Shown here: one piece after another, positions 6,388 to 37,303 of the stretch
Layout: each line of letters opens with the position of its first letter
How positions within the stretch are numbered: position 1 is the first letter of the stretch
Origin: an uncultured Helicobacteraceae bacterium
Lineage (GTDB): Bacteria; Campylobacterota; Campylobacteria; Campylobacterales; Helicobacteraceae
Reading direction: 5' to 3'
DNA: 64,000 nucleotides
Assembly: GCA_947176375.1 (NCBI GenBank)
Contig: CAMWQM010000006.1
Location: 13,531-77,530, forward strand
Position numbers and translations under genes: made by a program
The notes under the pieces: generated by a model
Told to the model about the DNA's origin: nothing
Database searches by the model: none
The model's input: the letters and a program-made list of their open reading frames with translations, nothing else

Positions 6388-6397
6388 GGGAGGTATA

Positions 6398-7096: not shown

Positions 7097-8162
7097 TATT
7101 TTAAGTCAAGAAGAAATTGATGCACTTCTTGAAGTAGTAGAGGACGAAGATACAGACAAAGAAAACCTTGATAGTAGTGATATTTTTAATCGTAAGCAAG
7201 TTACACTATATGATTTCAAGCGTCCAAATAGAGTAAGCAAAGAACAACTTCGTGCTTTTCGTGGAATCCACGATAAAATGGCTAGAAATCTTAGCTCACA
7301 AATCTCTGCAATTATGAGGAGTATTGTTGAAATTCAGCTTCATAGTGTGGATCAAATGACTTATGGTGAATTTTTAATGAGCTTACCTAGCCCAACTAGT
7401 TTTAATGTATTTTCTATGAAACCACTTGATGGGAGTGGAGTTTTAGAGATAAATCCTAGTATTGCATTTCCTATGATTGATAGACTCCTTGGTGGGAATG
7501 GTGAGCCTTATGAAAATACTAGAGAATTTAGTGATATTGAACTAAGTTTGCTTGATACAATTCTTCGCTATATAATGCAGAATCTTAAAGATGCGTGGGC
7601 GCCGATTACTGAGATTTTCCCTAGCGTTGATGCAAAGGAATCTTCTCCTAGCGTTATTCAAATCGTTGCTCAAAATGAAATTATCATAATGGTTGTAATG
7701 GAAATAATAATAGGGCATAGTAATGGTATGATGAATATATGCTATCCTGTTATATCACTAGAATCTGTGCTTTCTCGCCTTGCAAGCAGAGATTTGATGC
7801 TAAGTGAAACAAGTTCTAAGAAAAGTAGAAATAAGGAGCTTCAAGTTTTAATTGGAGGAGCATTAGTAAATGTTTCTGCTATACTTGGTAGTGCAAAGCT
7901 AACGCTAGAGGAAATTTTAGAGCTAAAAAATGGAGATATTATTAGGCTAGATAAAAGTGCTGATGATACAATTATTGTAAATATCGATGATAGGGATAAG
8001 TATATTGGTGAGATTGGATTGCAGAGATTTAGAAAAACTATCAAAATAAAAGATATAATCACAACTGAAAAAGACAAAGTCAAAGAAGTATTAGAAATGT
8101 TAGAAGGCAATAGAAAGCATAGAGTGGAGAATGTAAAAGAGGAGGAAGAAGCAAATGAATGA
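7089..8162 (+). CDS. fliM: Flagellar motor switch protein FliM
   Basis: 357 aa. The N-terminal CheY-P binding motif LSQEEIDALL, a CheC-like middle domain and a C-terminal SpoA-like domain are present. Confidence 0.93.
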   Translation: MADILSQEEIDALLEVVEDEDTDKENLDSSDIFNRKQVTLYDFKRPNRVSKEQLRAFRGIHDKMARNLSSQISAIMRSIVEIQLHSVDQMTYGEFLMSLPSPTSFNVFSMKPLDGSGVLEINPSIAFPMIDRLLGGNGEPYENTREFSDIELSLLDTILRYIMQNLKDAWAPITEIFPSVDAKESSPSVIQIVAQNEIIIMVVMEIIIGHSNGMMNICYPVISLESVLSRLASRDLMLSETSSKKSRNKELQVLIGGALVNVSAILGSAKLTLEEILELKNGDIIRLDKSADDTIIVNIDDRDKYIGEIGLQRFRKTIKIKDIITTEKDKVKEVLEMLEGNRKHRVENVKEEEEANE

Positions 8163-14248: not shown

Positions 14249-15104
14249 ATCACAAAATTTATCAAACTAAATACAATAAAAAGATTTTAGCGATGGCTTG
14301 GAGCTATATTCCAGTATTATGGAATCTAATTTACAAATCTATAAATCTATAATTTACAATGAAATTACAATGAATATATTGAAAATATTACAAAAGAATT
14401 TAGTAAAAAAGTCTTTATATAAACTTTAAAGAATCTTACTTTGATATTATTACTAGAGGTTTTGGCGATAGTTTATTATTAACTTTCATATTAAATTTCA
14501 TTTTAGTCTTATGCTTCAAATTATGCGTCTAAATGATATTATTTAAATAGGTTTTGGCGATAGGTTGCTTAAATGCAATTCAGAATAATACTTTGATAAT
14601 TTTTGCAAAAATAATCTTAGTTGCTTTTAAAAACACTATATCAAAAAATATTGAGATAAATATGGTATTTAGTGAGTTTAAAGCTTTGTTAGCTTCTATT
14701 TTTAATGATTTTTAGCCGATTAAGCAAAAAGGAAAAATAAACTCTAAAATAACTCATATCTTTAAAAACTGCACCCAAAAAACATAAAAATAGAGTTTAA
14801 TTGTAATAGAATCTGCGGAGTTTAAAAGCAATAATATTGAAAGTTTTCAAGATTTAAAAATCACACAAATAAATATCAATAATATGAATCAATATTCTAT
14901 GATAAGAAATAGCACCAAAATTAGACCATTTATAAGCTTTTGCAAAAAATAAGAAAGCATTAGATTTATGTTTTAATTGCAAGTTTTTGCATTATAAATA
15001 TTTTTGTCAAGAATTTTCTATATTAATTTATTGTTTAAGGCTAAAAAATCAATGCTATTTTGAATCCAAATTGAGCAACTTTTATTTTTGGATAGAGTTA
15101 AAAA

Positions 15105-17330: not shown

Positions 17331-18124
17331 AATTTTTTAAAGTATTGAAATATGAATTTTTGGAAAATATGACATCCATTTTACTAATTAATGGAATCTT
17401 AATTGTGCTAATTTTAACTATTAGATTATTTGCCGGTGCAGTGGATAGTTATCGTGATTTGAATTGGTTTACTTCAATGCTAATTATGTTAACACCTTTT
17501 GCGATTTTTTGCTCGATTATATTTTTGGTTATTGTGATTTTAAAATCACTTAATTCAAGGCTTTTTAGCACGGAGGGCTATCTTACATTAAGTTTGCCTG
17601 TGAAGTTAGATTCTATTCTTGTTTCTAAAATCATTGTTAGTGCATCTTATATATTATTAAGTTTATTGGTTGTATTTTTATGGGTGTTTTTAATGATTGG
17701 AAGTATAGAAGTTGATGTATTTAGAAATACTTATGAAACTTTAAGAAGTTTAGATTTTTTGCATACAATTTATATTTTGTGGCTTACTATTTTATACACT
17801 ATTAAGCCTCTAATTTGCATTTTATTTATTTTAACACTTTTAAATATAGGCAAGATTAATAGATTTAAGCCACTTGTTGGAATAGTTTTATTTTTTGTGC
17901 TATATATTATGGAGAGCCTGACTTTTGGAATTGCAAAAAATATGATATATCATTCATTTTTATTTATCGATGGTTATTACGCAGATTTTATTCGCTTATT
18001 TTTTCAATCTCACTATAAAACTATAAATATATTTGTGTTAACTGAAAGTATATCTACAATAGCGATAATTTTGATTTATTATTTCTTTTCAAAATATTTG
18101 ATAAAAAATAAATTAGAGATTTAG
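17327..18124 (+). CDS. ABC-2-type transporter permease-like membrane protein
   Basis: 265 aa with about 6 TM helices. The start overlaps the ATPase gene stop by 4 nt. Confidence 0.65.
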   Translation: MKFFKVLKYEFLENMTSILLINGILIVLILTIRLFAGAVDSYRDLNWFTSMLIMLTPFAIFCSIIFLVIVILKSLNSRLFSTEGYLTLSLPVKLDSILVSKIIVSASYILLSLLVVFLWVFLMIGSIEVDVFRNTYETLRSLDFLHTIYILWLTILYTIKPLICILFILTLLNIGKINRFKPLVGIVLFFVLYIMESLTFGIAKNMIYHSFLFIDGYYADFIRLFFQSHYKTINIFVLTESISTIAIILIYYFFSKYLIKNKLEI

Positions 18125-18128
18125 CAAG

Positions 18129-19975
18129 ATGCTAAAACTTGCTTTCAAAAATGTTAATATTTTTGTATTGCTATTTATTTCGTTTTTTGCGATTTTTTGC
18201 TCATTTTGGCTAATAATAAATTATGGAAACATAGATTTTAGTGCGATCATCTTTCATCTTAAAATGCCATATGGTGCGAATAGTTATTTTATAATTAGCT
18301 TTATCTTAGCTAGTATTGTGCCAAGCCTTATGCTTTCTTATTTGTGCTGTTTAAAGCGCATTATGCCTCTTATCATCATATTTGTGGTCTTTACTTTGCT
18401 TGTGGTATTAAAATATAACTATTTGGGCATTGTAGAGCGAATCTATAAAATAAAATTTGCGCTAAATTATAATTTATATCCATATATAGATTATTTGTAT
18501 GTTTTTTGTGGCATTGTAGTGGCGCTTTTGCTTGTATATTTTATGAATAGAAAATTTGGAAAATTTATTTATAAAAGAAGTATTTTGTTTGTTATGATTA
18601 TTTTTGTAGCTTCGCTTTATTCGCTTCATAGGCAATTCGATATAGTTAGATTCTTTACTAGAGATTACTCAAACTTCTATGAGCAAAACTATGTTTTTTA
18701 TGAATTGCCAAATAATTTAGAGGGCTTTAGAGTAGATACTAAAGATTCTATAGATTCCACATTAGAAATTCACATAATCCCACAAACAAAACGAAATCTA
18801 ATCATAATATTTTCTGAATCTATGGAATCTACTTATTCAAATACTGCTAATCTGCTGGAGCCAAATTTAGCAAATGGGGGAGTTGCATAATTTAGAATAT
18901 CCAGATTCCAACTTAAATGTGGAATTAAAAATAGATTCCACAAATGCAGAATCGAAATGGAAACTAAATATAGATTCTAAACTCAAAACTTCCACTTTAA
19001 ATTCCCCTCAAAATCTAGAATCTAATAATTTAGATTCCGCCATAGACTCCACTTTGCAAACAAAAAGGTAAAACAGCCTTTAAATCACTTCAAAATAAAA
19101 CTAATCTAATTCCGAATCTAACTTCTCTAGCAAATAGCCATATAAACTTTAGCACGACAGATTCTTTTGGTGGGATTATACAAGTTAAAAATACCTCTCC
19201 AACAATTGCTGGGACTTCATCTTATATGTGTGGTGTGCCTTTAAATGTTAGGATTGGCAATTATTTTAATATGCAAAATTTTCTATCCTCTGCTTCTTGT
19301 ATTAGTGATATACTGCATAATCTTGGCTATCACCAAATAGCACTTTTAGGATATGATTCTAGATTCGCTGGGTCCGCTGGATTTTTTAGGACGCATCATA
19401 TCAATGCAATCGATTTTCATAATTTCAAAGAAATGCTAAATATAAATAATGATAATCTAAATGATTTTAGTGGTTTTTGGGGGATAAAAGATAGCCTAGT
19501 TTTTGATTATGCAAAGAAATATCTTTCGCATATTGATAGCACAAAGCCTTTTGCACTCTATATTCCGACAGCTGATACATATTTTCCTGAAGGCTATGTG
19601 GATAAAGCTTATTGTAAAGGTCTGGATACCACTTATAATTCTGCAATTAAGTGCAATGATAAAATAATTAGCGATTTTGTCTCTTGGGTGCAGAGGTAGG
19701 ATTTTTATGAAAATACTACAATTGTAATCGTTGGTGACCATTTATCAATGAAACAAAATTATTTTAAAGAAAATGCCCCTAGATTCATTTTCAATATTTT
19801 TATTAATCCATCTTTTAGTAAGAATCCTAGCGCTGATTTGATAAAAAATAGAAAGTTATCTCATTTTGATATAACTGCTTTGATTTTAGATTCACTAAAT
19901 ATTAAGACTAAAGTCTTTGGTTTAGGACGTAATCCTCTTTATCAAAAAAACTTTACTAGAAATTTATGGAGTTGA
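18129..19975 (+). pseudogene. Disrupted sulfatase-family membrane enzyme (OpgB/MdoB- or LtaS-like phosphoglycerol transferase)
   Basis: - The N-terminal TM domain plus LIIIFSESMEST is in frame 0 (18129-18890).
- An LDS/LES-rich insert follows in frame 1 (18874-19071).
- The catalytic domain is in frame 2 (about 19046-19699; TIAGTSSYMCGVPL).
- An in-frame TAG at 19697 is followed by ...TIVIVGDHLS... up to 19975.
- The frame changes fall near a G5 run (18876-18880) and an A5 run (19062-19066). Confidence 0.75.
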
Positions 19976-23193: not shown

Positions 23194-24160
23194 ATTGCAT
23201 TTAGAAAATTTCGTAGAGATAATTTTAGGCAGACTTTATAGCACACCATCAATTTCATTTCTAAATAATATTAGCCTAAAAGTAGAAAATATTAAAAATG
23301 GCGATATATTCATCGCTAGGAATAAAGATGATATACAACAGGCTATAATGCGTGGTGCTTATGCGATTGTTAGTGATGAGGTGGTTGAAATTAGCGATGA
23401 TGAAATAGCGTGGATTGTTGTCGATAATATTGATAATGCCATTATTAGATTCATAAAATATATAAAAATAATAAATAATATAGAGATTTATCACTTTGAT
23501 GAAGTGAGTTTTGCTCTTGCAAATAAGATTATCAAAGATAAGGAGATCAGATTTGCAAGCAGTCTTGATGAGCTACTAGATTCTATATTTCATAAGATTG
23601 TTATTATTAATTTTGAGGTTTTATTATTTGAGATTAATCATTTAGAGCGAGATAGTGAGCTTTTATTTAAGATTCTTAAGCAGACTTTATTTGAGTGCAA
23701 ATTGGAATACCAAAATCAAGTTTATAGTTTAACAATTCCCTCTATTTTCATTAGGAATCTAAATGATGTGATGTATTTTTGTGCCTCTTTGCATATCGAG
23801 TTTAATTTAAAGATTAGCGAGGGTTTATTTTTACCTATTTTTATAAATTCTTTTGCGCAAAGCGTGAAATATGGTCAATCTATGAGATTTATCTATGCTT
23901 CAAAAAATAAAAATTTAATTGATAAATTTATAGAGTTTGTATTAAGTGCTTCATGGGGCAAAACTTTGGTGCTATCAAATGTAAACATCACAAATGAAAA
24001 TATTAATAAAAAATTTGAGATTAAGAAATATAAAAATAAAAATGATTTGATGAAATATTTTTTGTTAGAGCAATTTCATTTTTTTATAGTGTATGGAATT
24101 CAAAGCAATGAAATTCTATCTATCTTAAAAGATGAAATTATTGAGCCAAATTTATTTTAA
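23162..24160 (+). CDS. Hypothetical protein with Mur-ligase-N-terminal-like region
   Basis: 332 aa. NGDIFIARNKDDIQQAIMRGAYAIVSD resembles the MurF N-terminal domain, but no P-loop is visible. The start is possibly TTG 23195, just after the metG stop. Confidence 0.5.
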   Translation: MKQKSEARLAKLHLENFVEIILGRLYSTPSISFLNNISLKVENIKNGDIFIARNKDDIQQAIMRGAYAIVSDEVVEISDDEIAWIVVDNIDNAIIRFIKYIKIINNIEIYHFDEVSFALANKIIKDKEIRFASSLDELLDSIFHKIVIINFEVLLFEINHLERDSELLFKILKQTLFECKLEYQNQVYSLTIPSIFIRNLNDVMYFCASLHIEFNLKISEGLFLPIFINSFAQSVKYGQSMRFIYASKNKNLIDKFIEFVLSASWGKTLVLSNVNITNENINKKFEIKKYKNKNDLMKYFLLEQFHFFIVYGIQSNEILSILKDEIIEPNLF

Positions 24161-24530
24161 GATTTAGATTCTTAAAGCATAAAATAAAGCAATTTGATTA
24201 TTTAGTGGATTTTAATTAAAAACTACTAAAATATTTAGTAATTAAATCTAGTTTATTTTGTATTTATCCTTATGATAATCAAAATATTTAGTATAAAAAT
24301 TATTAAAAATATGTAATTTATCACATTTGTTTCTTATTTGTTTTATTGTTGTTGCAAATTATAGTTTATAGCCTTAAGATGGGGATATGGAGTTTTTATT
24401 TTTACACTCTTGTGCTATATTAAGAAAAATAGCAAATCTTTATCATTTATTAATCTGTTTACATTAGCTCAAATATTAATTGACTTTTAATTGCTTATTT
24501 TAGTAGAATCATAACTTTGTTTTTCAAAAT

Positions 24531-24607
24531 GTCAAGGTAGCTCAGCTGGTTAGAGCGCTGGTCTCATAAGCCGGAGGTCGGGAGTTCAAGTCTCCCCCTT
24601 GACACCA
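24531..24607 (+). tRNA. tRNA with CAU anticodon (elongator Met, or lysidine-modified Ile2)
   Basis: 77 nt. The acceptor stem is GTCAAGG/CCTTGAC, with D-loop AGCTCAGCTGGTTAGAGC. The anticodon loop is CTCATAA (CAT at 24565-24567). The T-arm is GGGAGTTCAAGTCTCCC and the CCA is encoded. It is not an initiator: pair 1:72 is G:C and the anticodon stem lacks the GGG/CCC pairs. Confidence 0.9.
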
Positions 24608-24954
24608 CTTCATATTTTTCTTTAAAAAATTAATTTTAACCATCTTAGTTTTAGTTCTATTAATTTATTTTTTGGCAAATATTTTAAAAATTTTATAAGT
24701 AAAAGACTTGTTAAATAATTTTAGATAAATGGCTCGTTTGTGCTTTAAAATGGTAGTCAAGTAGATTTTAAAATTAGAATCTAATAAAACATCTTTAATA
24801 AGAATTTATTTGTTTTGCTTGTTGTGTAACACATTTGAATTAGAAATAATCCATTTAAAGAAATGTTGAATAAATAGATTATATGGTTTTCTTGGTTTTA
24901 TTGCATTTTAGAGATTCTATAATTTTAAAGCAAAAAATAGGTGAGAGTAGTAAA

Positions 24955-25452
24955 TCATTGTTCATAATTTTCTATTGATATGGTTACACCATTTGTAAGA
25001 TTTTTAAAATATATTCGCTTTGTCCCCCGCTCATAGTAGATATTTTCATTTCCATAGCTAAATTTTTGTATTATGGTCTCATCTTCTCCTAGCTCCTTAC
25101 CTCTGCCCTCGAATATATCTTTTTTTAGTAAAATCTCCTCAAGAAGTGTATCATAGCTCACATTACCAAAAAATGAGCGACTTGCGGGCCATTTTGGAGC
25201 GCAGTCATCATTGAAGCAAATTTGTTTTTCTTCTATTGTGAATCTTCCTATACTTTTACCTAGTTTAAAGACTTCTAGGCTTATATTTGGCGTGGTTCTT
25301 AAGATTCCAAAATCATAGAATTTAATATTTTGACTTTTGATTAAAATAAGTTTTAATTCGCCCTTATCAGTTTCTTCTAGATTTTCCACTTTTGGTGTAG
25401 CACAGGCACTAAAGATAATGCATATGGCTATGGCGAATTGTGCTACTTTCAT
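24955..25452 (-). CDS. Putative lipoprotein, co-transcribed downstream of the FlgP-like gene (FlgQ position)
   Basis: 165 aa with a signal peptide and lipobox IIFSAC. It starts 2 nt after the upstream gene. The functional guess rests on position only. Confidence 0.55.
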   Translation of the reverse strand: MKVAQFAIAICIIFSACATPKVENLEETDKGELKLILIKSQNIKFYDFGILRTTPNISLEVFKLGKSIGRFTIEEKQICFNDDCAPKWPASRSFFGNVSYDTLLEEILLKKDIFEGRGKELGEDETIIQKFSYGNENIYYERGTKRIYFKNLTNGVTISIENYEQ

Positions 25453-25454
25453 AT

Positions 25455-26234
25455 TTATTTATTTGATAGAATATTATGCCAGATTTTGCCATCTAGTTTT
25501 AATTCCATAGTGATTTGGCAAAGTCCATCTTTATAAACAGTCTCAATTACTTCAGCATTTTTAATCAACGCTTCAACCTTTGTTTTTACCACAGAATTAA
25601 TCAGCATCATATCACGCACTGTGTCTTGTGCATTCAATCTAATACCATACATCTTTTCACCTATTTGTCTGTAAGCATCAATTATTGCTGCCCTTTTTGC
25701 CAAAGCTAGTGCTTGAGATGGAGAAATTGTAGATTCTGGTGCCACTCCCATGCCAACAGCACTTAACTCTATGATATTATTAGGCGTTAGTATTGGTGAG
25801 TTTTGAATCATATTTGTTTCTTGTTTCTCTGTGCTTGGAGCTGGGGTGGTTGGCACAGCCTGCTCATAAGGCACTATCTCACTAGGTGCTACATAATTTG
25901 GCATATAATCGCCCCTCTGGTCTCTAATATAAATATCTACACTAGGATTATTGCTTACCTGCTCTTGTGGCATTTGCTGTGGAAACTGGCTATTTTGTAG
26001 ATTCCCTGTGATATTTGCTTCACCAACATTCAATCTGTCAATGTTCATAACCCTGTTGTTATTGTCATTTAGTAGATTCGGATTATATGGCTGATTTAGT
26101 GGCGGATACACTGGTGCTTGTATAGGAGAGTATTCCGCTGATGGTGGTATCATATTTTGGTCTTCATCTGCAAACATAGAGCAGCCTGAAAAAATCACTA
26201 TAAAACTTGAAATTATCCATATTTTGAATTTCAT
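25455..26234 (-). CDS. LPP20-domain lipoprotein, FlgP-like (flagellar basal-disk lipoprotein candidate)
   Basis: 259 aa with lipobox IFSGCS and a Pro/Gln/Asn-rich linker. The C-terminal LPP20-like domain reads ALALAKRAAIIDAYRQIGEKMYGIRLNAQDTV...VIETVYKDGLCQITMELK. A sigma54-type promoter lies upstream. Confidence 0.6.
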   Translation of the reverse strand: MKFKIWIISSFIVIFSGCSMFADEDQNMIPPSAEYSPIQAPVYPPLNQPYNPNLLNDNNNRVMNIDRLNVGEANITGNLQNSQFPQQMPQEQVSNNPSVDIYIRDQRGDYMPNYVAPSEIVPYEQAVPTTPAPSTEKQETNMIQNSPILTPNNIIELSAVGMGVAPESTISPSQALALAKRAAIIDAYRQIGEKMYGIRLNAQDTVRDMMLINSVVKTKVEALIKNAEVIETVYKDGLCQITMELKLDGKIWHNILSNK

Positions 26235-26269
26235 ATCCTTAACCTTTTTATCTAAAATTTTGGAATCCT

Positions 26270-26287
26270 AAGCAAATAGTATTCCAT
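26270..26287 (-). promoter_or_regulatory. Candidate RpoN (sigma54) -24/-12 promoter for the FlgP-like operon
   Basis: The minus strand reads ATGGAATACTATTTGCTT. GG and GC have the exact sigma54 spacing, matching the Campylobacter/Helicobacter consensus TTGGAAC-N4/5-TTGCTT. The site lies about 35 nt upstream of ATG 26234, which has an AAGGA RBS. Confidence 0.55.
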
Positions 26288-26574
26288 AAATTTGTAAATT
26301 AATAAATAGATTTGATTTAATGTATTTTAGTAAAAATAATGGTGCAATTTAGATGGAAATGTTTGTTAATTTTTGAGATAAATTTAGTTTTTACAGCTTT
26401 GTTTTATTAAAATTAAAAGATATTTTAAAGTAAATTGCAAATAGCCGTAATTATACATAAAAACATACAGATTTGGAATAAGTAGATTTGTTAAACTTGA
26501 CTAAAAATTAAGGTAAAATTTTAAGATTATTTTCTTAAGAATTATATTAGGTAAAATATATAAGGGAGAGTGTA

Positions 26575-29500
26575 ATGAAAACTTTAGGTTTTGATATAGG
26601 GATTACTAGCATTGGTTGGGCTTTTATAGAAGATGATGAACTTAAAGATTGTGGAGTTAGAATATTTACTAAAGCTGAAAATCCAAAAACAGGAGAATCT
26701 CTATCTTTGCCTAGGAAAGAAGCTAGAGGAGTAAGAAGAAGGTTAGCAAGGAGAAAACAAAGGCTAAATGAACTTAAAAAATTAATTTGTAAAGAATTTG
26801 GATTCAATCTCAAAGATTATTATAGCAATGATGGTGAATTACCCAAAGCCTACCAAACTACTAAAGACACTAAAAGCCCTTATGAGTTGCGTTATTTGGC
26901 ATTGCACCAAAGACTAGAATCTAGTGATTTAGCAAGAGTGATTTTACATATCGCAAAACATCGTGGTTATGGAAATAAACACGCTAAAAATTTAAATTAT
27001 TCTCAAAATGATGAAAATACAGAAATTAATCAAACAGAGGGTAAAAAATCAAAAAGTAAAAAAGATAAGTCTAATGAAGTTAAAAATGCTCTTAAGGTTA
27101 ATAGAAGGCTAGTAAAGAAGTATCAAAGTGTAGGAGAATATCTGTATAAAGAATTTTTTCAAATCCAAAGAAGTGATAATGAAATAATAGAGTCCTTAAA
27201 AGCAAGAGGAGATACAAGTAAAACAAAACAATTTAAAAATGTTCGCAATAAAGCAGGGAAATATGAACATTGTATGGCACAAGAATGGCTAAAAGAAGAA
27301 CTTGAACTAATTTTTACAAAACAACAAGAATTTGGAGTAAATTTAAGTGATACATTTTGTAAAGAGGTTTTAAAAACCGCCTTTTATCAACGTGATTTAA
27401 AAGATTTTAGCTCTAAAGTTGGAGAATGTATATTTTGTAAAGACGAGAAATGTTCCCCTAAAAATTCTCTTAGTGCGATGGAATTTGTAGCCCTTACTAA
27501 AATTATCAATACACTAAAAAATCTAGAAGAAAAGAATAAGAATCTTGGTATTGGTGAAGTATATGGGGAAAATAAAATAGAAGAGATTCTAAAAATCGTG
27601 CTTGATAAGGGTGTGATGAGTTATAAGAAATTGCGTGAGATTCTAGATTTGAATGAGAAAATAAGGTTTAAAGATCATAAACTTGATTATAGCAAGGATA
27701 TAAAAGAAGCTGAAAAGCGAAACTTCATTGAATTTAAAAACCTTAAAGATTTCAAAAATGCAATGGGTGAATATGATTTTAATAATCTATCCTACCGCAA
27801 AGAGCTAGATTCTATAGCAACAGATATTACCCTAATTAAGAGTAAGTATAATCTAGCAGAAAAACTAAAAGATTATCCAACTCTTACACAAAGACAAATA
27901 GAAGCTTTAAGTGAGTTAGATTTTACACAACATATTAATTTAAGCTTAAAAGCTCTAGAAAAGATTCTACCTTTTATGCGAAAAGGAGTTCGATATGATG
28001 AGGCAGTAAAAATGGCAGGGTTGCAAGAGCATAGAAAGCATAATCAAAAGAGTGAATTTTTGCCTCCACTTAAAGATTATGAGCCATATCTAGCAAATCC
28101 AGTAGTTGCAAGAGCACTAAGTGAATATCGCAAGGTGCTAAATGCTCTACTTAAAAAGTATGGGAAAATGCATAAGATTCACTTAGAATTTACACGTGAA
28201 GTGGGTAGAAACTATAAAGAGCGAAAAGAGATTGAAAAAGAGCAGACAAAGAATTTTGAATTAAATCAAAGGGCACAAAAACAATGTGAAATTCTTGGAT
28301 TGCCTCTTAGTAGTTCAAATATACTTAAAGCAAAGCTTTGGATAGAGCAAGGGGAATATTGTGCTTATAGTGGAGAAAAAATTACTAGAGAGCATTTACT
28401 AGATTCTAATGTCTTGCAAATTGACCATATTTACCCCTACTCTCGCAGTTATGATGATAGCTACAATAATAAGGTGCTTTGTTTTACAAAAGAAAATCAA
28501 AATAAGATTAATAAGACACCTTTTGAAGCATTTGGGGATGATAAAGAAAAATGGGATAAAATTCTAGCACTAGCTAGTAAGCTTCCCAAAGCAAAGAAAC
28601 GCAGAATTACAAATACTCAATTTAGCAATAAAGAAGTAGGCTTTATTGCAAGAAACCTAAATGATACAGGATATATTGCAAGATTAGCAAGTGATTGGAC
28701 AGATAATTCATTAAAATTTTTGCCCTTAAGTGAGAATGAGGTAACGATTGCAGGAGAAAAGGGTAGTAAAAAACATATAGAAGTAGTAAGTGGGAGTTTA
28801 ACTTCAATGCTTAGACATTATTGGGGACTTGGAAGTAAAGATAGGGATAATCACCTTCATCACGCAGTAGATGCAATAATTATTGCTTATACTAATGCAA
28901 AAACTATCAAGGCATTTTCAGATTTTAAAAAGACACAAGAGCAAAATAAAGCAAAGTTTTATGCTAAACAAATAGCAGAATCTGAATATAAAAAGCAAAA
29001 AGTGTTTTTTGGGCCCTGCCTTGATTTTAGAAATAAAATTTTAGCAAAAGTAGATTCTCTTTTTGTCTCAAAACCACCACGTAAAAGAGCAAGGGGTGCA
29101 TTGCACAAGGAAACTTTTCATTCCTTTAATGATGAAAAACTACTTAAAGAATATGGTGGCACACAAGGCATACAAAAAGCACTTGAACTAGGTAAAATCC
29201 GGCAAATTGGAACAAAGATTGTGAGTAATGGAGCAATGGTGCGAGTGGATATTTTTAGAGATAAAAAAGGCAAATTCTATGGTGTGCCTATTTATACTAT
29301 GGATTTTGCATTAGGAGTTTTGCCAAATAAGGCAGTAAGAGGTGGTAAAAAAGATGGCGTGATTAAAGATTGGCTTGAGATGGATTCTCAATATGAATTT
29401 TGTTTTAGCCTATTTAAAGATGATTTAATATTAGTTCAAAAAAAGGAAATGGAGAAACCTGAGTTATGTTATTTTGTAAGTTTTGACACTTCAACTGCAA

Positions 29501-29865
29501 GTATTCAGGTTGAAAAACATAATAATAAATTTGAGGGCTTGAGTGAAAATGAAAAATTACTCTACACCAATGCTACATTAAAAGAAGTGATAGGTAAAAG
29601 CATAGGCATACAAAATCTAAAAATCTTTGAAAAATATCAAGTTTCTTCACTAGGTGAGATAAAGAAAAGTATTGTATTTGATAAAGAGTATAATTGCTAT
29701 GTTTTATTTGATAAAAATGAAAATATATTAAAAGATTCTAATGATATTCTCAAAAAGCCTGCAAGAGAGCCTATCTCATTAAAATCAAGCAAAAAGAAAA
29801 CTCTACAAATTTCCACTCAAATACACTCAAACGCACAGCTAAAAGAACTTGATAGAAAAGACTAG
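26575..29865 (+). CDS. cas9: Type II-C CRISPR-associated endonuclease Cas9
   Basis: - 1096 aa.
- RuvC-I is FDIGITSIGWA.
- The arginine-rich bridge helix is RRRLARRKQRL.
- HNH is LQIDHIYPYSRSYDDSYNNKVLCFTKENQNKINKTPFEAFG.
- RuvC-III is HLHHAVDAIIIAY.
- Long stretches are near-identical to C. jejuni Cas9 as I remember it (YQSVGEYLYKE, GKIRQIG..VRVDIF, VPIYTMDFALGVLPNKAV, SIGIQNLKIFEKY). Confidence 0.95.
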   Translation: MKTLGFDIGITSIGWAFIEDDELKDCGVRIFTKAENPKTGESLSLPRKEARGVRRRLARRKQRLNELKKLICKEFGFNLKDYYSNDGELPKAYQTTKDTKSPYELRYLALHQRLESSDLARVILHIAKHRGYGNKHAKNLNYSQNDENTEINQTEGKKSKSKKDKSNEVKNALKVNRRLVKKYQSVGEYLYKEFFQIQRSDNEIIESLKARGDTSKTKQFKNVRNKAGKYEHCMAQEWLKEELELIFTKQQEFGVNLSDTFCKEVLKTAFYQRDLKDFSSKVGECIFCKDEKCSPKNSLSAMEFVALTKIINTLKNLEEKNKNLGIGEVYGENKIEEILKIVLDKGVMSYKKLREILDLNEKIRFKDHKLDYSKDIKEAEKRNFIEFKNLKDFKNAMGEYDFNNLSYRKELDSIATDITLIKSKYNLAEKLKDYPTLTQRQIEALSELDFTQHINLSLKALEKILPFMRKGVRYDEAVKMAGLQEHRKHNQKSEFLPPLKDYEPYLANPVVARALSEYRKVLNALLKKYGKMHKIHLEFTREVGRNYKERKEIEKEQTKNFELNQRAQKQCEILGLPLSSSNILKAKLWIEQGEYCAYSGEKITREHLLDSNVLQIDHIYPYSRSYDDSYNNKVLCFTKENQNKINKTPFEAFGDDKEKWDKILALASKLPKAKKRRITNTQFSNKEVGFIARNLNDTGYIARLASDWTDNSLKFLPLSENEVTIAGEKGSKKHIEVVSGSLTSMLRHYWGLGSKDRDNHLHHAVDAIIIAYTNAKTIKAFSDFKKTQEQNKAKFYAKQIAESEYKKQKVFFGPCLDFRNKILAKVDSLFVSKPPRKRARGALHKETFHSFNDEKLLKEYGGTQGIQKALELGKIRQIGTKIVSNGAMVRVDIFRDKKGKFYGVPIYTMDFALGVLPNKAVRGGKKDGVIKDWLEMDSQYEFCFSLFKDDLILVQKKEMEKPELCYFVSFDTSTASIQVEKHNNKFEGLSENEKLLYTNATLKEVIGKSIGIQNLKIFEKYQVSSLGEIKKSIVFDKEYNCYVLFDKNENILKDSNDILKKPAREPISLKSSKKKTLQISTQIHSNAQLKELDRKD

Positions 29866-29874
29866 GAAAGTAAA

Positions 29875-31230
29875 ATGTTTGATTCTCACTTTAGAACACT
29901 CTTTCTTAGCACACCAGCAAAGCTTAACTTTAAAGATAAAAGATTAATTATTTCTCTAAAAAATGAGCTAGATAATGGAGGAGAAACCACTAGTTATCCT
30001 TTAAATGGAAGCCTAAATAAAGATATAAAATATAAAGCCAAGAGCCCTCATCAAATATTGGAATCTAAAGCTACAATCTCGCATAAAATTAAATTTAATC
30101 CCTCTCTCAAAGCCCTAAATAATGTTCCACATAAATACACTAAAAATACAAATCAAGAAGCAAAAAATACTTATTGTGATACTTATAAAGATGAGATAGC
30201 AATCCCCTTAAGTGATATTTTATGTCTTATTATCGAATCTAGGCAAGTTAGCTTAAGCTCTTATTTGCTAAATGAATTAGCAAAGGAGAAAGTTTTGGTT
30301 TTTGTTTGTGATGAATTTCATTTGCCAAGTGGAATTTTCACTCCATTTTTAGGGCATTATCGCTCTTTAAGTATTTTGCAAAATCAAATCAATTTAAGCA
30401 AGCAAAAGAAAGCTATTCTTTGGCAAAAAATTATCAAGCAAAAAATCTTAAATCAAGCTAATTTGCTAGAATTTATTAAAATCAAAAAAGCTAGTGAATT
30501 GCACAGCCTTGCAAAAAGTGTGCATTTAGGGGATTCTAGTAATAATGAAGCAAAGGCAGCAGCGATTTATTTCCCTGCTTTGTTTCAATCTATTGCAAAT
30601 ATAAAAGGTTTTTCTCGCAAGATTAGTGGCTCTAAAATTTGGCAGGGTGATAGAACTAGCCCTAAAAAGCAGACTGATTTTGAGAGCCAGACTCCTAATA
30701 TCCACACTGATAGTCCTGATAACATAAATCACCCTAAGAATTTCAATTTTGATGATATTAAAAGCCTCCAAAATATAAACCTACAAGATGAGCAAATAGT
30801 GGTTATCAATGCCGCACTAAATTATGGCTATGCGATTGTGCGTGGAATGGTGGTTAGGGCGATTTGCGCAAGTGGACTAAATCCAGCGTTAGGTATCTTT
30901 CATAGTAATCAATTCAATCCCTTTAATCTTGCTGATGATTTGATGGAGCCTTATAGAATCTTTGTAGATTCCCTTGTGGCACAAATGCTAGAAAATAAAG
31001 AATTGCAAGAGAGTTTTAGCATATCAAATCGTGCTAAATTAGCAGAAATTTTAAGTGCAAGTGTGTTATTAAGTGAGGAACAAAAAATCTATCCTTTGCA
31101 TAGAGCGATAATCAAAGGTGTGCAGAGCCTATCTCGCTCTATGAGTGCAGATGTAGAGCTTATTTTGCCTGTATTTGAAGGAGAAAAATCAAATGGAAGA
31201 GAAATTTATGAGAGTGCTAGTGATGTTTGA
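29875..31230 (+). CDS. cas1: CRISPR-associated integrase Cas1, unusually long (two in-frame insertions)
   Basis: 451 aa. The conserved core is present: SNNEAKAAAIYF, INAALNYGYAIVRG, GIFHSNQFNPFNLADDLMEPYR. Extra segments are at about aa 31-106 and aa 250-305. Confidence 0.88.
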   Translation: MFDSHFRTLFLSTPAKLNFKDKRLIISLKNELDNGGETTSYPLNGSLNKDIKYKAKSPHQILESKATISHKIKFNPSLKALNNVPHKYTKNTNQEAKNTYCDTYKDEIAIPLSDILCLIIESRQVSLSSYLLNELAKEKVLVFVCDEFHLPSGIFTPFLGHYRSLSILQNQINLSKQKKAILWQKIIKQKILNQANLLEFIKIKKASELHSLAKSVHLGDSSNNEAKAAAIYFPALFQSIANIKGFSRKISGSKIWQGDRTSPKKQTDFESQTPNIHTDSPDNINHPKNFNFDDIKSLQNINLQDEQIVVINAALNYGYAIVRGMVVRAICASGLNPALGIFHSNQFNPFNLADDLMEPYRIFVDSLVAQMLENKELQESFSISNRAKLAEILSASVLLSEEQKIYPLHRAIIKGVQSLSRSMSADVELILPVFEGEKSNGREIYESASDV

Positions 31231-31516
31231 TATGCCAACAAACACGAAAGAAGATAGGAAAAACTGTATGAAATTCCGCCAAAGTCTCATCAAAGAGGGT
31301 TTTATGATGCTTCAATATAGCGTATATATGAGAATCTGTAAGGGTGTGGCAAATGCAAACTCACATTTAGATAGGCTAGATTTGATTTTACCACCAAAGG
31401 GGCATATAAGGGCATTGCTTTTAACTGAAAGACAATTTGATAATATGCGATTATTGCTAGGAAAAAGAAGTGAATGTGAAAAGTCAAACAAACCCAGACA
31501 GCTTACTTTGTTTTAG
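31193..31516 (+). CDS. cas2: CRISPR-associated endoribonuclease Cas2
   Basis: 107 aa counted from ATG 31193. MEEKFMRVLVMFDMPT is a typical type II Cas2 N-terminus, and a GGAG lies about 9 nt upstream. The gene overlaps the cas1 3' end. The track starts it at TTG 31175. Confidence 0.88.
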   Translation: MEEKFMRVLVMFDMPTNTKEDRKNCMKFRQSLIKEGFMMLQYSVYMRICKGVANANSHLDRLDLILPPKGHIRALLLTERQFDNMRLLLGKRSECEKSNKPRQLTLF

Positions 31517-31546
31517 GTTTTTGTTTTTTAGATTCTATTGTTAAAT
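31510..31546 (+). repeat. Solitary CRISPR-repeat-like 37-mer overlapping the cas2 stop (not a confirmed array)
   Basis: The sequence is GTTTTAGGTTTTTGTTTTTTAGATTCTATTGTTAAAT. It shares the GTTTTAG 5' end, the length and a TGnTAAAT-type 3' end with the C. jejuni type II-C repeat as I recall it. There is only one copy and no second repeat at spacer distance. Confidence 0.25.
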
Positions 31547-32759
31547 TTTAGGCTTTAACAGGGCTAATAAATCTCTAGCTTTGTAAAATATAGCTTTAAA
31601 ATTCTGGGCTTTTAGGTTTAATTTTATGTAGTAATATTCCATAGAAGTGTTTTGAGAACTTTAGAATCTAGATTAATTATTTTTTGTTTTTCATTTTGTT
31701 CTACAAAATGATGTGGATATATGGGAGGAGTTATAGCAAATAAAATGGATGTGTGTAAAACAAAAGTGTAGTTTATTCTTTATTTGTGGGAAAGGCTATA
31801 CTTGTTGATACTTTTAAAAAAGCTAGGAGTGCATTTTAAAGGATTTTAGTATTTAATTCATAAAAATGATGGCAAATTTTTAAGCAACTTTGGAATCAAA
31901 AAAAAAGAATCTAAATAATACTATAATGGTGAAATTAAAATAGATTTTATCAAGATTTTAAGAAGCTACATAGAATTTAAAATATTTAAAATTTCTTTAA
32001 CTTAAACTCTTAGATATGATTTGTGGAATCTAAATATTAATAATCTAACATACTTAAAGCTTTTCAAAAACTGCATAATACTCAAAATAGAAACTAGTAT
32101 GGCAGATTTTGGATAATTAGAGTTTTTAAAATTAGAATCTAAAGGTATCATTTTTAACCCCAATTCTTCTATAGGGGTTCAAAGAAATTATTTTATAGAG
32201 AATTGAGCAAATATTATATTAAATTTAGATAGTTTTCAATATCTATCGCAGATAAAATTAAAATTTGTGTTGAAAATATTCTAAGAATATGCTTTTATGG
32301 TAGTAGAAAATTAAAATTTTATTAATTTGTTAAATAACTAATCTTATTTATTTTAACGAATTTTTATACTAATCAGTTTAAAAATCTTCTTCATAAAGAT
32401 AGTCATTATATGAATTATTTACAATAAAATCTATATATTATTATATTCTTTAAATATAATTATATACACTCTTTATAAAATAACCTAAGAGATGTATATA
32501 TTTATCTACATAATAGACAGCAAAGACTATAAAAGACTATATTTGTTTGAGCTAGTAATTAAAAATCCAAAAAATATTTAATTATGGATGTTTTGTATAT
32601 AAATTTATGATTAGCAAAATACTAATTTCACCAATATTTAAATATTTTTCTTATTAAAAAAGTTGTGTAACTTTGCCATTTTAGCATTTGGATTAATTTA
32701 TTTTTTTGATTAAACTTTCTTTGTTTTTTAAATTTTAACAATAAAACAAAGGATAAAAA

Positions 32760-33256
32760 ATGAAACAAGATATTATGGCTAATGAAAATAGTGATGATGT
32801 AGTAGCCTATCAAAATTCAGGAATTCCTGCTACCTCTAATGAAAATTTAATGTATATTGAGAATGGAGAAGTTAAAAATAAAAAATTTGTAGATAGAACA
32901 CCAGAAGAACAAAGAGAAACTATTAAGAATAAGTTAGCTTATTATTTAAAAAGAACTATTGAAAATGGAACTTCACCACTATTTCAAAAACACTCTAAAG
33001 AATCTTTCCAAGATGAAAAGAATATAGCATTGTTAAAAGCAACTTAAAAGCTTCTAATCTCCTAGCTAAACATAAAAATGGAGGACATACTCTTAGGCAT
33101 TCATTTGCCTCATTAATATATAAGGAATCTAATAATCTTTTATTACTCCAACAGCTACTTGGACATTCCAGTATTGAGATAACTAGAATCTATACTCATT
33201 TAGATGAAAATGCCATAACTAATGCAACTAAATATTTAGATGTGATATGTGAGTAG
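32760..33256 (+). pseudogene. Decayed tyrosine recombinase (phage-type integrase), C-terminal part only
   Basis: A frame-2 fragment at 33017-33256 has no start codon. It reads ...[45 protein letters not shown]..., giving the HxLRH box, LLGH and the catalytic Y. The overlapping 95-aa ORF 32760-33047 (..NGEVKNKKFVDRT..SPLF..) looks like the preceding integrase segment in another frame. Confidence 0.65.
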
Positions 33257-33658
33257 AGTAATGATTAAAAAATAAAATGAATTAGAGTAATGATTTATTT
33301 TAGGTTAAAATTTTTAGTTCTAGATTCTAAATCATTATTAGACTTTACTTTAATATTTAAAGAAGAATCTAATTTATTATTAGATTCTATATTCTCTAAC
33401 TCATTTTCATAAAGTGAGTGTCAAGTCATTATTCATCGCCCTAATATCAATTAGCACTACTTTTTTGGTTGAATGCAGATAGCGTATAAACCCAGAAACT
33501 GATGAGCCTGCATCATAGTGAATTTTGGCTTATTTTTAGCATTTTTCTTGCTCCCAAAATATCTTGAATAAAATATAAGCTATCTATTTGTTCATTCTGT
33601 GCGATTTTTATTGGTTTATTTTGAGATATAAATTAAATTGTTGCTATAAAATGTATTT

Positions 33659-34315
33659 CTAAAGCGATTGTATGAATTTTACAGCTTTAAGTGAATCTAA
33701 AAAAATATTATTACTAAATTGTTCTAGATCTGCTCTTTTGCCATATCCACAGAGGATTCCAATGCCTTGAATATCAGCATTTTTAGCAGCTTGCAAATCT
33801 AGTATCGTATCGCCGATCATAAAAGATTTGTTTTTATCTATCTTTATATTTTTAGATTCCATTATCATCAAAGCATTTATTATCGGTTCTTTGTGAGGCT
33901 TTGTATGCACCACATCTTCCCTGCCAATCATAACGCTAAAATATTTTTCCACTTCAAAGTGTTGTAATAGTTCTCTTGAGGAGTGACTTGTTTTTGTTGT
34001 TACGATTCCTAGATTTGCAAATTTACTTGCTAGTTTTATGGATTCTGCTGCATTTGGAAGCATAGTCGTTTTAGCCCTATGTATCGTTGTGTAATGTCTT
34101 TTATAGTCATTGCAACACACCTCAATCAAATCACTACTCACGCCAAAAAATCTAAACATATCTTGCAGAGTGTAACCTATAAATTTTGTAATTTTATTTT
34201 TTGGAAGAAGTGGTATTTTGTGTTTCTTAAATACATTTAAAAAGCTCTCATAGATTGCATCTGTGGAATCTATTAAAGTGCCATCCATATCAAACAAAAT
34301 GATTTTATCTTTCAA
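33659..34315 (-). CDS. HAD-superfamily phosphatase (phosphoglycolate phosphatase-like)
   Basis: 218 aa with motif I FDMDGTLIDS, motif II VTTK and motif IV GDTILD. Confidence 0.85.
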   Translation of the reverse strand: MKDKIILFDMDGTLIDSTDAIYESFLNVFKKHKIPLLPKNKITKFIGYTLQDMFRFFGVSSDLIEVCCNDYKRHYTTIHRAKTTMLPNAAESIKLASKFANLGIVTTKTSHSSRELLQHFEVEKYFSVMIGREDVVHTKPHKEPIINALMIMESKNIKIDKNKSFMIGDTILDLQAAKNADIQGIGILCGYGKRADLEQFSNNIFLDSLKAVKFIQSL

Positions 34316-35636
34316 TTTTTAATCCTTTTAGCTCAAATCTTATAACAATTACACTAACAATGAAGGCGCAAAATAGTGATAGTGGGTAAGCTAGCCAGAT
34401 TCCATTCACTCCAAATAATTTTGCTCCAAGCGGTAGAAAAATTAGCATAAAAAATAAATTATGCGATAAGGAGGTTATTATAGAGCCTCTAACCTTACTA
34501 ATTGCTTGTAAAAATGCAGATATGATGATATTTGCTCCTAAAAATAAATAGCCTAGATAGTATATTTTAACAGCAGTGATTAAATCTGGCAGTATCTTTG
34601 TATCCTCTTTTAAAAAGATTCTAGCTATGTGGCTAATCCCTAAATAAAGCACAATATAAATGATTATCCCAATTATCGTGGCAAATATTAGACTAATTTT
34701 GAGAGTTTTTAGCACTCTATTTAAGTTTTTAGAGCCAAAATTATAGCTAACAATAGGCTGAAGCCCGTGTGATATAGCCAAGATGCTAGTAAAACAAATC
34801 ACTCCTATATACATCATTATACTTAAAATTGCCACCCCGCTTTGCGAACCTAGCTTGATTAGAAAAATATTCATTAGCATAATGATGAACCCAAAGGCAA
34901 ATTCCGACATAGATGGTGCGATTCCATTAATTGCAGACTTTTTAATCGCCTCAAGGCTAAAGGCTTTTATGAAATACAGTTCACCATTTTTGCACAAAAA
35001 ATGCTTTAGTATGATAATTAAGCCTATAAAATGCCCAATTATTGTAGAGAGTGCCGCTCCAAACATACCCCACTTGAAAATAAAAATAAAAATATAATTT
35101 AAAATGATATTAATAACAGAGCCAGAAATGAATGAAATCATTGTAAGATTCGGTGCTTTATCGTTGCGTGCGAAAGTGCAGAGAATTGATTGTGTGATAA
35201 TTATTGCATTTCCTAGCAAAATTACATTTAGATACTCTAGTGTATATGGCTTTAAAACTTCGTTGGTTCCAAGCACTATGACTACTTTTTCTCTTAAAAT
35301 AAAAAGTAAGATTCCAAGTAATATGCTAAATGTAGTAGTGAAATAAATTACTGAATTAAAAATCACTTTTGCTTTAAATGTTTTATAATTTCCTAAGGCA
35401 ATACTAACAAGTGCTGCTCCTCCAATCCCAAATAAAAGCTCAAATCCTGTAAAAAATGTAAATACAGGCACCACAAGTCCTACAGCAGAAAGTCCAGTCT
35501 CACCAATACCTTTACCAATAAAGATTCCATCGATTATTACATCAGTTGATAGCACAAACATACTGATAAATGAGGGAATAAAATATGATAAAAATAGTTT
35601 TATTATTGATGTATTTTTTAAGTCTAATTGTTTCAT
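34305..35636 (-). CDS. MATE family efflux transporter
   Basis: 443 aa with about 12 TM helices and the typical MATE N-terminus (LFLSYFIPSFISMF). The start overlaps the HAD gene by 11 nt. Confidence 0.82.
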   Translation of the reverse strand: MKQLDLKNTSIIKLFLSYFIPSFISMFVLSTDVIIDGIFIGKGIGETGLSAVGLVVPVFTFFTGFELLFGIGGAALVSIALGNYKTFKAKVIFNSVIYFTTTFSILLGILLFILREKVVIVLGTNEVLKPYTLEYLNVILLGNAIIITQSILCTFARNDKAPNLTMISFISGSVINIILNYIFIFIFKWGMFGAALSTIIGHFIGLIIILKHFLCKNGELYFIKAFSLEAIKKSAINGIAPSMSEFAFGFIIMLMNIFLIKLGSQSGVAILSIMMYIGVICFTSILAISHGLQPIVSYNFGSKNLNRVLKTLKISLIFATIIGIIIYIVLYLGISHIARIFLKEDTKILPDLITAVKIYYLGYLFLGANIIISAFLQAISKVRGSIITSLSHNLFFMLIFLPLGAKLFGVNGIWLAYPLSLFCAFIVSVIVIRFELKGLKIER

Positions 35637-35710
35637 TATTCTCTCACTGAAAGTTTAGAATCTATAAGTTAAAGCAATTTTTGCTATTTATATTGTTAAA
35701 ATTTTTTAAG

Positions 35711-37303
35711 CTATCGCTTTAGTGTAATATCTTCTCCCGGATTGCCTTCTGAAAAATTCACATTTTGTAATCTCAATTTCAGGTCTGAAGGTGAAGTGGC
35801 CTTTTCCATAGCCACATCTTCTGTAACTATATTATTTGTGATTAATTCAAATAGATGCTGGTCGAATGTCTGTGTCTGGTAGATTCCTTTTCCTTCTGCT
35901 AATGCTTCTAAAATTTCTCCATCTCTACCTTCGTCTATGATTAGTTCGATTCTAGGGGTTCTAAATAGTATTTCTATTGCTGCTGTTCGTTTTCCATCAA
36001 CCGTTTTTAATAGTCTTTGAGAAATAATGGAGTTTAGTATGCTTGAGAGAGTTTTTCTAATTCTATATTGGTCTGTTGGTGGAAATACTGAAATAATCCT
36101 ATTTATAGTCTCTTTGGCATCGAGTGTATGTAATGTTGATAGCACTAAATGCCCTGTTTCTGCAGCGTGAAGTGCCATTTCTATTGTTTCAATATCTCTC
36201 ATCTCACCTACTAGAATAATATCTGGGTCTTCACGCAGTGCTGCTTTTAGTGCATTTGCAAAGCTATTCGTATCCATTCCAACACTTCTCTGATTTATCA
36301 TACTCTTTGCATCTTTATGCACGAATTCTATCGGGTCTTCAATGGTTATGATATGCTTTGCGTGTTTATGGTTTATTTCATTTATGATTGCTGCTAGTGT
36401 GGTTGATTTACCAGAACCTGTGATACCTGTAACAAGCACTAACCCACGCTCCATATCTACTATTTTATTGATTGCTTCAGGTAATCCTAGCCCTTGTATA
36501 GTATTTTGTGTTGTAGGAATGGTTCTAAATGCGAATGACACTCCTTCCATTTGAAAAAATATATTTACCCTAAATCTTGTTGTAGCATCATAGATATAAG
36601 TCATATCCATCTCTTTATTTATTGCTAATTCTTGGAATCTAGTCCTTGTTAGCTCTTTTGCAAATGTTATTGCTTCATCTTTTGTAAAAATGTCATTACT
36701 AAATATTACAATATCACCCCTAACTCTAGCACGAATATGGGAGTTTGCCTTTAAATGTAAGTCGCTCCCACCCACACTAATTAGCTTTTTTAAATAACCT
36801 CTAACTTTTTTTGTTATGGCAAAATCAAGCTTATCTACATCAACTACTAACGAGTTGGTGTTTTGATTTGTGTTTGACTTTTTATTAATCGTTTGTTCAG
36901 CTAAAAAAGCAGATTTTATGTCGTTGTGTATAGATTTGTTGTAATTATGTATGTTTTGGTCTGGTATATTTATTTTAGATTTTGGTGAGTTTGGCTGTGA
37001 TTTTGTTTGTATTGTGTTTATAGGTTTTATTAGTTTCCCTTGATGTGCATTTAAGTTTGCTTGATCTGATTTTTGGCCAATATTTGGAGTAACTGGTGTG
37101 AATCTGTTAGATGAAGTCACTGATTGCGACGTAGCCATCTTCTTTGTAGAGATGTGCGTTGAAATATTATTTGTTATATTTGTGTTTGCTGTGTCCTGTG
37201 CATTTCTATTTGTCATAACTGGTTTAGCATTAGCTAATACATCAATAGTATTTATTTTAGGGGTAGTTTTCATTTGTGTGTTTAACCCAATATTTGTTTC
37301 CAT
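35711..37303 (-). CDS. PilT/PilU-like type IV pilus retraction-family ATPase with long low-complexity N-terminal extension
   Basis: 530 aa. Walker A GITGSGKSTT, Asp box EDPIEF, Walker B ILVGEMRD and His box TGHLVLSTLHT are present, with a PilT-like tail RTPRIELIIDEG. The first ~170 aa are Asn/Thr/Gln-rich. Confidence 0.82.
   Translation of the reverse strand: METNIGLNTQMKTTPKINTIDVLANAKPVMTNRNAQDTANTNITNNISTHISTKKMATSQSVTSSNRFTPVTPNIGQKSDQANLNAHQGKLIKPINTIQTKSQPNSPKSKINIPDQNIHNYNKSIHNDIKSAFLAEQTINKKSNTNQNTNSLVVDVDKLDFAITKKVRGYLKKLISVGGSDLHLKANSHIRARVRGDIVIFSNDIFTKDEAITFAKELTRTRFQELAINKEMDMTYIYDATTRFRVNIFFQMEGVSFAFRTIPTTQNTIQGLGLPEAINKIVDMERGLVLVTGITGSGKSTTLAAIINEINHKHAKHIITIEDPIEFVHKDAKSMINQRSVGMDTNSFANALKAALREDPDIILVGEMRDIETIEMALHAAETGHLVLSTLHTLDAKETINRIISVFPPTDQYRIRKTLSSILNSIISQRLLKTVDGKRTAAIEILFRTPRIELIIDEGRDGEILEALAEGKGIYQTQTFDQHLFELITNNIVTEDVAMEKATSPSDLKLRLQNVNFSEGNPGEDITLKR

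Follow-up and report, generated by a model that had tools for sequence, protein, structure and literature searches.

A type II-C cas9-cas1-cas2 operon without local CRISPR array or tracrRNA in an uncultured Helicobacter species, probably an orphaned locus in early decay

The type II-C system of Campylobacter jejuni, with its Cas9 (CjCas9; PDB 5x2g/5x2h), is the described counterpart of the locus examined here, a cas9-cas1-cas2 operon within 64,000 nucleotides (nt) of DNA from an uncultured gut-dwelling Helicobacteraceae bacterium (assembly GCA_947176375.1, contig CAMWQM010000006.1, positions 13,531 to 77,530; hereafter the window, with positions counted from its first letter). Both have the same gene order, without csn2 or cas4, and the window Cas9 shares the CjCas9-specific WED and PI-CTD domains. 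In contrast to the C. jejuni system, the window carries neither a trans-activating CRISPR RNA (tracrRNA) nor an array of short palindromic repeats, clustered and regularly interspaced (CRISPR), its Cas9 is ~110 amino acids (aa) longer (REC insert, C-terminal additions) and its Cas1 ~130-150 aa longer. The tracrRNA scaffold of Helicobacter relatives is of the CjCas9 type, and their 36-nt repeat, GTTTTAG...GGTAAAAT, is likewise shared with C. jejuni. The nearest named relatives are enterohepatic Helicobacter, namely H. ganmani, H. typhlonius and H. rodentium, whose loci (L005, P0004-P0067) hold the nearest orthologues outside the species, with identities of 72-73% for Cas9 (72% for H. ganmani), 76% for Cas2 (73-84% across relatives) and, over the aligned parts, about 47-54% for Cas1; JGI metagenomes contained no closer relative and none above 67% identity. 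Loci of the H. ganmani type carry the tracrRNA 65 nt past cas2 and an array of at least 13 repeats, and their flanking genes are unlike those of the window.

Type II cas loci without a CRISPR within 10 kb account for 109 of 477 (22%) in complete genomes, and Streptococcus pyogenes MGAS10750 has a type II cas locus only (Zhang & Ye 2017, PMC5294841). Since isolated type II loci are this common, an orphan type II cas locus is already known in kind. The isolated or orphan loci of that survey likewise comprise a full cas9-cas1-cas2 set and lack a CRISPR within 10 kb, and nothing essential distinguishes the window from them; what it adds is population evidence of ongoing pseudogenisation. We consider the locus to be, with fair probability, a type II-C cas operon that has been orphaned and is at an early stage of decay. 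As such it matters little, being a further case in which CRISPR-Cas is lost, as is known to happen often; its modest value would be that of a snapshot, in which the guide RNA genes were lost first while the protein genes are intact in some strains and freshly broken in others. In addition, the 1096-aa Cas9 is a divergent CjCas9 relative without a native guide, which could serve in editing only with a borrowed tracrRNA and repeat (e.g., from H. ganmani).

An open cas operon without local guide RNA genes

Three plus-strand cas open reading frames (ORFs), all open, occupy window positions 26575-31516 (Table 1). The first-pass annotation, made from the letters alone, had described an intact type II-C operon whose Cas9 keeps the RuvC-I, HNH and RuvC-III motifs and is close to that of C. 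jejuni, and both descriptions are borne out. The cas9 product matches TIGR01865 with 670 bits as well as Pfam HNH_4, RuvC_III and the CjCas9-specific WED and PI-CTD domains, the cas1 product matches TIGR03639 (type II Cas1; NCBIfam) with 255 bits and the cas2 product matches TIGR01573 (NCBIfam). We located RuvC-I (FDIGITSIGWA, aa 6-16), RuvC-II (IHLEFTRE, aa 535-542), HNH (QIDHIYP...NNKVLC, aa 615-636) and RuvC-III (HLHHAVDAI, aa 760-768), and the closest solved structure is that of C. jejuni Cas9 (5x2g, E=2e-246). Neither csn2 (II-A) nor cas4 (II-B) is present, and no extra ORF lies between or beside the cas genes, so that the gene set is that of type II-C. Of the components of a complete type II-C system, the window thus holds a cas9 with RuvC and HNH domains and cas1 and cas2 without csn2 or cas4; a repeat-spacer array and a tracrRNA with anti-repeat and scaffold were not found in the 64 kb.

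Table 1 Coordinates of the cas locus features in the window
Feature	Position	Strand	Description
Intergenic region 5' of cas9	26235..26574	+	no repeat, anti-repeat or tracrRNA
cas9	26575..29865	+	1096 aa, CjCas9-like type II-C; ORF intact, every RuvC and HNH motif present
REC-lobe insert of Cas9	26989..27078	+	Cas9 aa 139-168, within hypervariable aa 130-240; low-complexity, strain-variable
C-terminal addition of Cas9	29671..29862	+	27-aa insertion and 18-aa extension around conserved LKSS motif; species-specific
cas1	29875..31230	+	451 aa, type II (NMENI-type); insertions aa ~31-104 and ~249-303; catalytic E, H, D motifs
cas2	31193..31516	+	107 aa from ATG shared with relatives; overlaps cas1 end
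Spacer	31517..32759	.	1.24 kb, 21% GC, non-coding; at relatives' tracrRNA/array position
ORF95	32760..33047	+	95 aa, no family match; found in sister strains too
Tyrosine recombinase/integrase remnant	33029..33256	+	only C-terminal ~55 residues of ~300-aa family

In relatives such as H. ganmani, tracrRNA and then array follow from ~65 nt past cas2. In the H. ganmani locus L005, cas2 ends at 14373, the tracrRNA lies on the minus strand at 14438-14519 and from 14620 onwards follows the array, in which GTTTTAGCCGCTTTCTAAATTCTTTTATGGTAAAAT occurs at least 13 times. A tracrRNA and/or an array is also present in L003, L004, L006, L007, L008, L010, L011, L014 and L017, and the array of L010, adjoining the cas genes, has no fewer than 15 copies of its repeat (14 pairs detected at 65-66 nt spacing).

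The search for array and tracrRNA covered the window and its flanks, ~8 kb of L019 on the upstream side and ~4 kb of L022 on the downstream side, altogether ~76 kb of one contig. Within the window the operon is flanked by 26 kb on its upstream side and 32 kb on its downstream side, with no array found between the two edges. Over the 64 kb, Tandem Repeats Finder returned no period of 50-80, and a scan for matches at lags of 36-119, with a threshold of 20 matches in 24, gave only three chance pairs, all far from the cas locus. Within 31517-32759 autocorrelation revealed no 60-72 nt periodicity (all absolute z values at most 1). The best window match to the 36-nt repeat of the relatives was 25/36, and the corresponding repeat profile reached E=0.08 or worse over the window and E=3.5 or worse inside the spacer, while comparison of the spacer with the tracrRNA and array regions of the relatives (permissive blastn, nhmmer) yielded AT-rich noise only. 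With periodicity, repeat profile and blastn/nhmmer all negative, a decayed array in the 1.24-kb spacer was rejected. Two further candidates were rejected: the lone repeat-like match at 18096-18138 (E=0.08) straddles the boundary between two coding ORFs and is regarded as a chance match, and the inverted repeat at 26343-26439, considered as a repeat/anti-repeat pair, is 77% complementary, AT-rich and unlike the repeat of any relative.

For the tracrRNA we used a covariance model (R1) built from the tracrRNAs of six relatives and the CjCas9 tracrRNA sequence. Its scores in 10 related loci ranged from 34.6 to 107 bits, with 79-107 bits for L003-L007 and L011 and 35-42 bits for L007b, L008, L010, L014 and L017, which are more distant. 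In the window the model did not exceed 18 bits (E>1), whether the filters were on or, over 24000-36000, off. An Rfam scan of the window detected only a tRNA-Met at 24531-24607, and promoter and terminator scans stayed at chance level. The first-pass annotation had likewise seen no array upstream of cas9 or downstream of cas2 and no tracrRNA or anti-repeat, and had named 26235-26574 and 31517-32760 as the places where software might detect them after all; neither array nor tracrRNA was found there. Array and tracrRNA are therefore absent within the 64 kb, and with three cas genes and no CRISPR within 10 kb the operon is an isolated cas locus as defined in PMC5294841 (at least three cas genes, among them cas1/cas2 or an effector, and no CRISPR within 10 kb). 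The guide RNA genes are presumably absent from the rest of the genome, too.

Sister assemblies and selection on the cas genes

Three same-species Logan assemblies, consisting of metagenome-derived contigs, were reached via the 90% cluster of the nearest Cas9 match, its cluster members and exact-protein look-ups: L013 (SRR25448169), L028 (SRR25571612) and L029 (SRR25448274). Exact-protein look-ups with cas2, HAD, metG and an LPP20-like gene returned no further samples, and we found no paper in the literature naming the assembly or the sequencing runs. The flanks of the sisters are 98.5% identical to the window, and the sisters differ from each other by at most 0.2%. In SRR25448169 the contigs L013 and L030 share an overlap of exactly 30 nt (= k-1) across the junction, in SRR25571612 the contigs L028 and L031 abut at the same junction, and both joined samples are collinear with the window (cas2, spacer, ORF95, HAD), leaving no room for an array. 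Because two other same-species assemblies show the same junction, the array-less junction is a property of the species as sampled and not an assembly artefact. The spacer is common to the sister strains, and since 11 indels, including 32- and 52-nt deletions, separate the strains there, it looks unconstrained as judged from the sequence; the region 5' of cas9 differs from the sister strains by 6.2% and 7 small indels.

While cas9 (1079 aa), cas1 and cas2 are all intact in L028, disabling mutations in cas9 and/or cas1 occur in two of the four sampled genomes. In L013, a 1-nt deletion in cas9 at window position 26859, outside any homopolymer, leads to a stop at codon 114, and cas1 has a CAA>TAA change at 31006; in L029, a CAG>TAG change in cas9 at 28243 is the sole difference from L028 in 3240 nt. 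These are three independent knock-outs, none of them in a homopolymer. In the recent clade, two of nine substitutions are nonsense (P=0.057 under neutrality), to which one frameshift is added, a hint that cas inactivation is possibly even favoured.

For cas9, the ratio of non-synonymous to synonymous divergence (dN/dS) between the window and L028 is 0.42 (confidence interval (CI) 0.31-0.55), or 0.30 (CI 0.21-0.45) without the hypervariable segment aa 130-240, compared with 0.11 when 18 flanking genes of these two genomes are pooled (Fisher p=3.5e-12 for the whole gene, 1.9e-5 without the hypervariable segment). Related pairs in which both members have a tracrRNA match show cas9 values of 0.16-0.29, and the pair L008 and L009, the latter without local RNAs, shows 0.12. 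For cas1, dN/dS is 0.69 (4 synonymous, 11 non-synonymous changes). At Cas9 sites conserved in outgroups, the window lineage has 23 derived changes and L013 has 31. Compared with their neighbours, cas9 and cas1 are under relaxed constraint, yet constraint has not been absent. Divergence along the locus is mosaic, ranging from 0 to 8% per 300 nt, with a cas9 synonymous divergence (dS) of 0.08-0.11 against a background proportion of synonymous differences (pS) of 0.048 and a cas1 dS of 0.015, which suggests recombination; the time of RNA loss relative to the divergence of the alleles can therefore not be fixed.

Origin of the locus and competing explanations

The first-pass annotation had left three options side by side, loss of the array with decay of the locus, an array elsewhere in the genome and an array-independent role of Cas9, without choosing among them. 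We favour the first, because the RNAs are missing from the exact position that they hold in relatives and because the junction is common to three assemblies and accompanied by fresh lesions in two of the four genomes. The ancestor would have had the CjCas9-type layout, cas9-cas1-cas2 followed by tracrRNA and array on the opposite strand, starting at most ~100 nt from cas2. In this Helicobacter species tracrRNA and array would have been removed; an AT-rich spacer of 1.24 kb now separates cas2 from ORF95 and the integrase remnant. Without tracrRNA and CRISPR RNA (crRNA), Cas9 would be unguidable, and without leader and repeat, Cas1-Cas2 would have no site for spacer integration. With no guide for Cas9 and no integration site for Cas1-Cas2, the three cas genes of the window, still present as ORFs, are most likely inert for immunity, and point mutations are inactivating them in the population.

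Several points weigh against this scenario. The DNA searched is the 64 kb with the ~8 kb of L019 and the ~4 kb of L022, all from one contig, and the three lesions are known solely from assembled metagenome-derived Logan contigs. Moreover, lineages that keep their arrays also lose CRISPR-Cas genes by mutation, so that knock-outs by themselves are no proof of genome-wide array absence. For cas9, dN/dS stays clearly under 1, and only in-frame indels separate the L028 allele from that of the window. Given the 2.2% divergence of the shared spacer between the window and its sisters, a neutrally evolving cas9 would be expected to have gathered ~3.4 nonsense mutations (P of none = 0.03) and several frameshifts. 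Either selection lasted past the RNA loss, or recombination mixed the histories.

A functional system with tracrRNA and array encoded elsewhere in the genome, which would make the operon isolated and not orphaned, is in our view unlikely. Three intact ORFs with catalytic motifs, a cas9 dN/dS of 0.30-0.42 with alleles separated only by in-frame indels, the presence of both 'distant CRISPR' and 'no CRISPR' cases among the isolated loci of the survey (PMC5294841), and the operons of L001 and L009/L016, intact without local RNAs (dN/dS 0.12 for L009 and L008), are consistent with it. However, every related locus in which the RNAs were found has them adjoining the cas genes, type II arrays lie at a median distance of 103 bp from the closest cas gene (PMC5294841), three recent knock-outs in two of four genomes mark the genes as dispensable, and no tracrRNA-like signal appears in the ~76 kb. 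Even less room is left for an assembly in which the array collapsed or was dropped, which we regard as highly improbable: CRISPR arrays often break short-read assemblies, and both sister cas-side contigs end near window position 32687-32716, but the window is continuous from cas2 to HAD, the exact 30-nt overlap of L013/L030 and the abutting ends of L028/L031 leave no space for an array, and the contig break coincides with the polymorphism of an 11-nt tandem duplication. This duplication, AAAAGTTGTGT (window 32647-32668, L013 7984), is polymorphic between strains and falls at the contig break in both sister assemblies.

Alternatively, Cas9, possibly with Cas1-Cas2, might be kept for a guide-independent or non-canonical role as apoCas9, with host-derived guides or in regulation, a proposal that we consider rather unlikely. 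Purifying selection in the history of the cas9 alleles, both clades of which share the array-less junction, speaks for it, as does the finding that type II-C apoCas9 stimulates spacer acquisition without crRNA or tracrRNA (PMC12477760); non-canonical crRNAs of CjCas9 derived from host transcripts are known as well (PMC8224270). The apoCas9 function, however, needs at least one repeat (PMC12477760), of which the window has none, the non-canonical crRNAs need a tracrRNA, likewise missing from the window, and cas9 is broken in two of four genomes with two of nine recent substitutions being nonsense (P=0.057 under neutrality). Knock-outs and nonsense share together point to dispensability or even cost, not to maintenance. 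That selection keeps cas9 open without tracrRNA and array, which would imply a guide-independent or non-canonically guided function of a CjCas9-like protein, is accordingly doubtful in our view. If cas9 were under such selection, the locus would lend itself naturally to testing guide-independent Cas9 biology; the C-terminal addition and the hypervariable segment of the REC lobe might have a link to that function, and the recurrent knock-outs would then reflect the cost of the activity in some hosts. Orphaning with early decay remains the reading we prefer.

Insertions, flanking features and further observations

Two additions to Cas9 described in the first-pass annotation were resolved further. 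The REC insert, put at ~25 aa, is real, but relative to Helicobacter relatives it amounts to about 20 aa, and it is strain-variable. The loop varies among strains and among species, the insert has no counterpart in the three sister assemblies, and inserts unrelated to it occur at this REC loop in other orthologues (e.g., P0077). The surrounding segment, Cas9 aa 130-240 (window 26965-27300), shows 31% nucleotide divergence, a dS of 0.74 and a 54-nt indel compared with same-species strains, whereas adjoining parts of cas9 differ by 0-8% between them; allelic replacement by recombination or diversifying pressure are both possible. Of the C-terminal tail, put at ~60-70 aa, 64 aa do extend past the CjCas9-aligned end, but against Helicobacter proteins it consists of a separate insertion and extension (Table 1). 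This addition is kept in L013 and L028 and occurs in no other Helicobacter or Campylobacter orthologue. Cas1 contains two large insertions of about 74 and 50 aa (451 aa compared with 320), overlooked in the first-pass annotation, which we considered as a sign of decay and rejected as such, since the array-bearing L010 has a Cas1 with shorter inserts in the same two loops; as L010 adjoins an array, these sites are permissive. The REC insert, the C-terminal addition and the Cas1 insertions do not bear on function either way.

Beyond the integrase remnant follow convergent HAD and MatE genes. We also considered a genomic island between the tRNA-Met (24531-24607) and the integrase remnant and rejected it, no direct repeat of the tRNA 3' end having been found and the GC content of the cas genes (0.31-0.35) being near that of the genome (0.30). 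As no att-like duplication of the tRNA was found, the participation of a mobile element in the loss of the RNAs is only a suggestion. Farther upstream, a sulfatase-family (PF00884) gene at 18129-19699 is split into ORFs of 253, 65 and 157-196 aa, whereas the same gene is a single 639-aa ORF in the same-species L028; it is probably a pseudogene or a phase-variable gene in the window genome.

Among related loci, two others combine an intact cas9-cas1-cas2 with the lack of a local tracrRNA or array: L001 of an uncultured Helicobacter (5140-7532), with a convergent gene 30 nt past cas2, and L009 (14090-15288; = L016) of a Campylobacteraceae metagenome-assembled genome (MAG). L008, 94% identical to L009, has a tracrRNA and the start of an array, and the Cas2 proteins of both L008 and L009 end in a ~100-aa acidic/basic C-terminal extension. 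The 5.2-kb contig L007 contains two different tracrRNA-like sequences, at 56-141 (+; 79 bits) and 5006-5110 (-; 42 bits), and upstream of cas9 a fragment resembling the C-terminus of Cas2. Read from the matched start, the cas9 frame closes early in the distant relatives L011 (986-4435; 803 aa) and L015 (116-3432; 241 aa), so that these may be further cas9 pseudogenes or cases of start or frame misassignment.

Finally, a palindrome is over-represented in the window, both in coding and in intergenic DNA, at a density of about 1 per kb: TAGAWTCTA occurs 52 times in 64 kb compared with 1.9 expected from base composition, and its core AGAWTCT 147 times compared with 15 expected. Sites include 31529, 31664, 31907, 32026, 32135, 33321 and 33381, and the palindrome is also found in L001, L002, L005 and L006. 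In the window GAWTC is 2.7-fold enriched and GASTC 4-fold depleted. AGAWTCT is in ~9-fold excess in other enterohepatic Helicobacter loci as well, whereas the Campylobacter MAG loci L009, L016 and L017 show strong avoidance of GAWTC (4 compared with 33-48 expected). The pattern recalls DNA uptake sequences, or a motif tied to a methylase/restriction system of the GANTC type.

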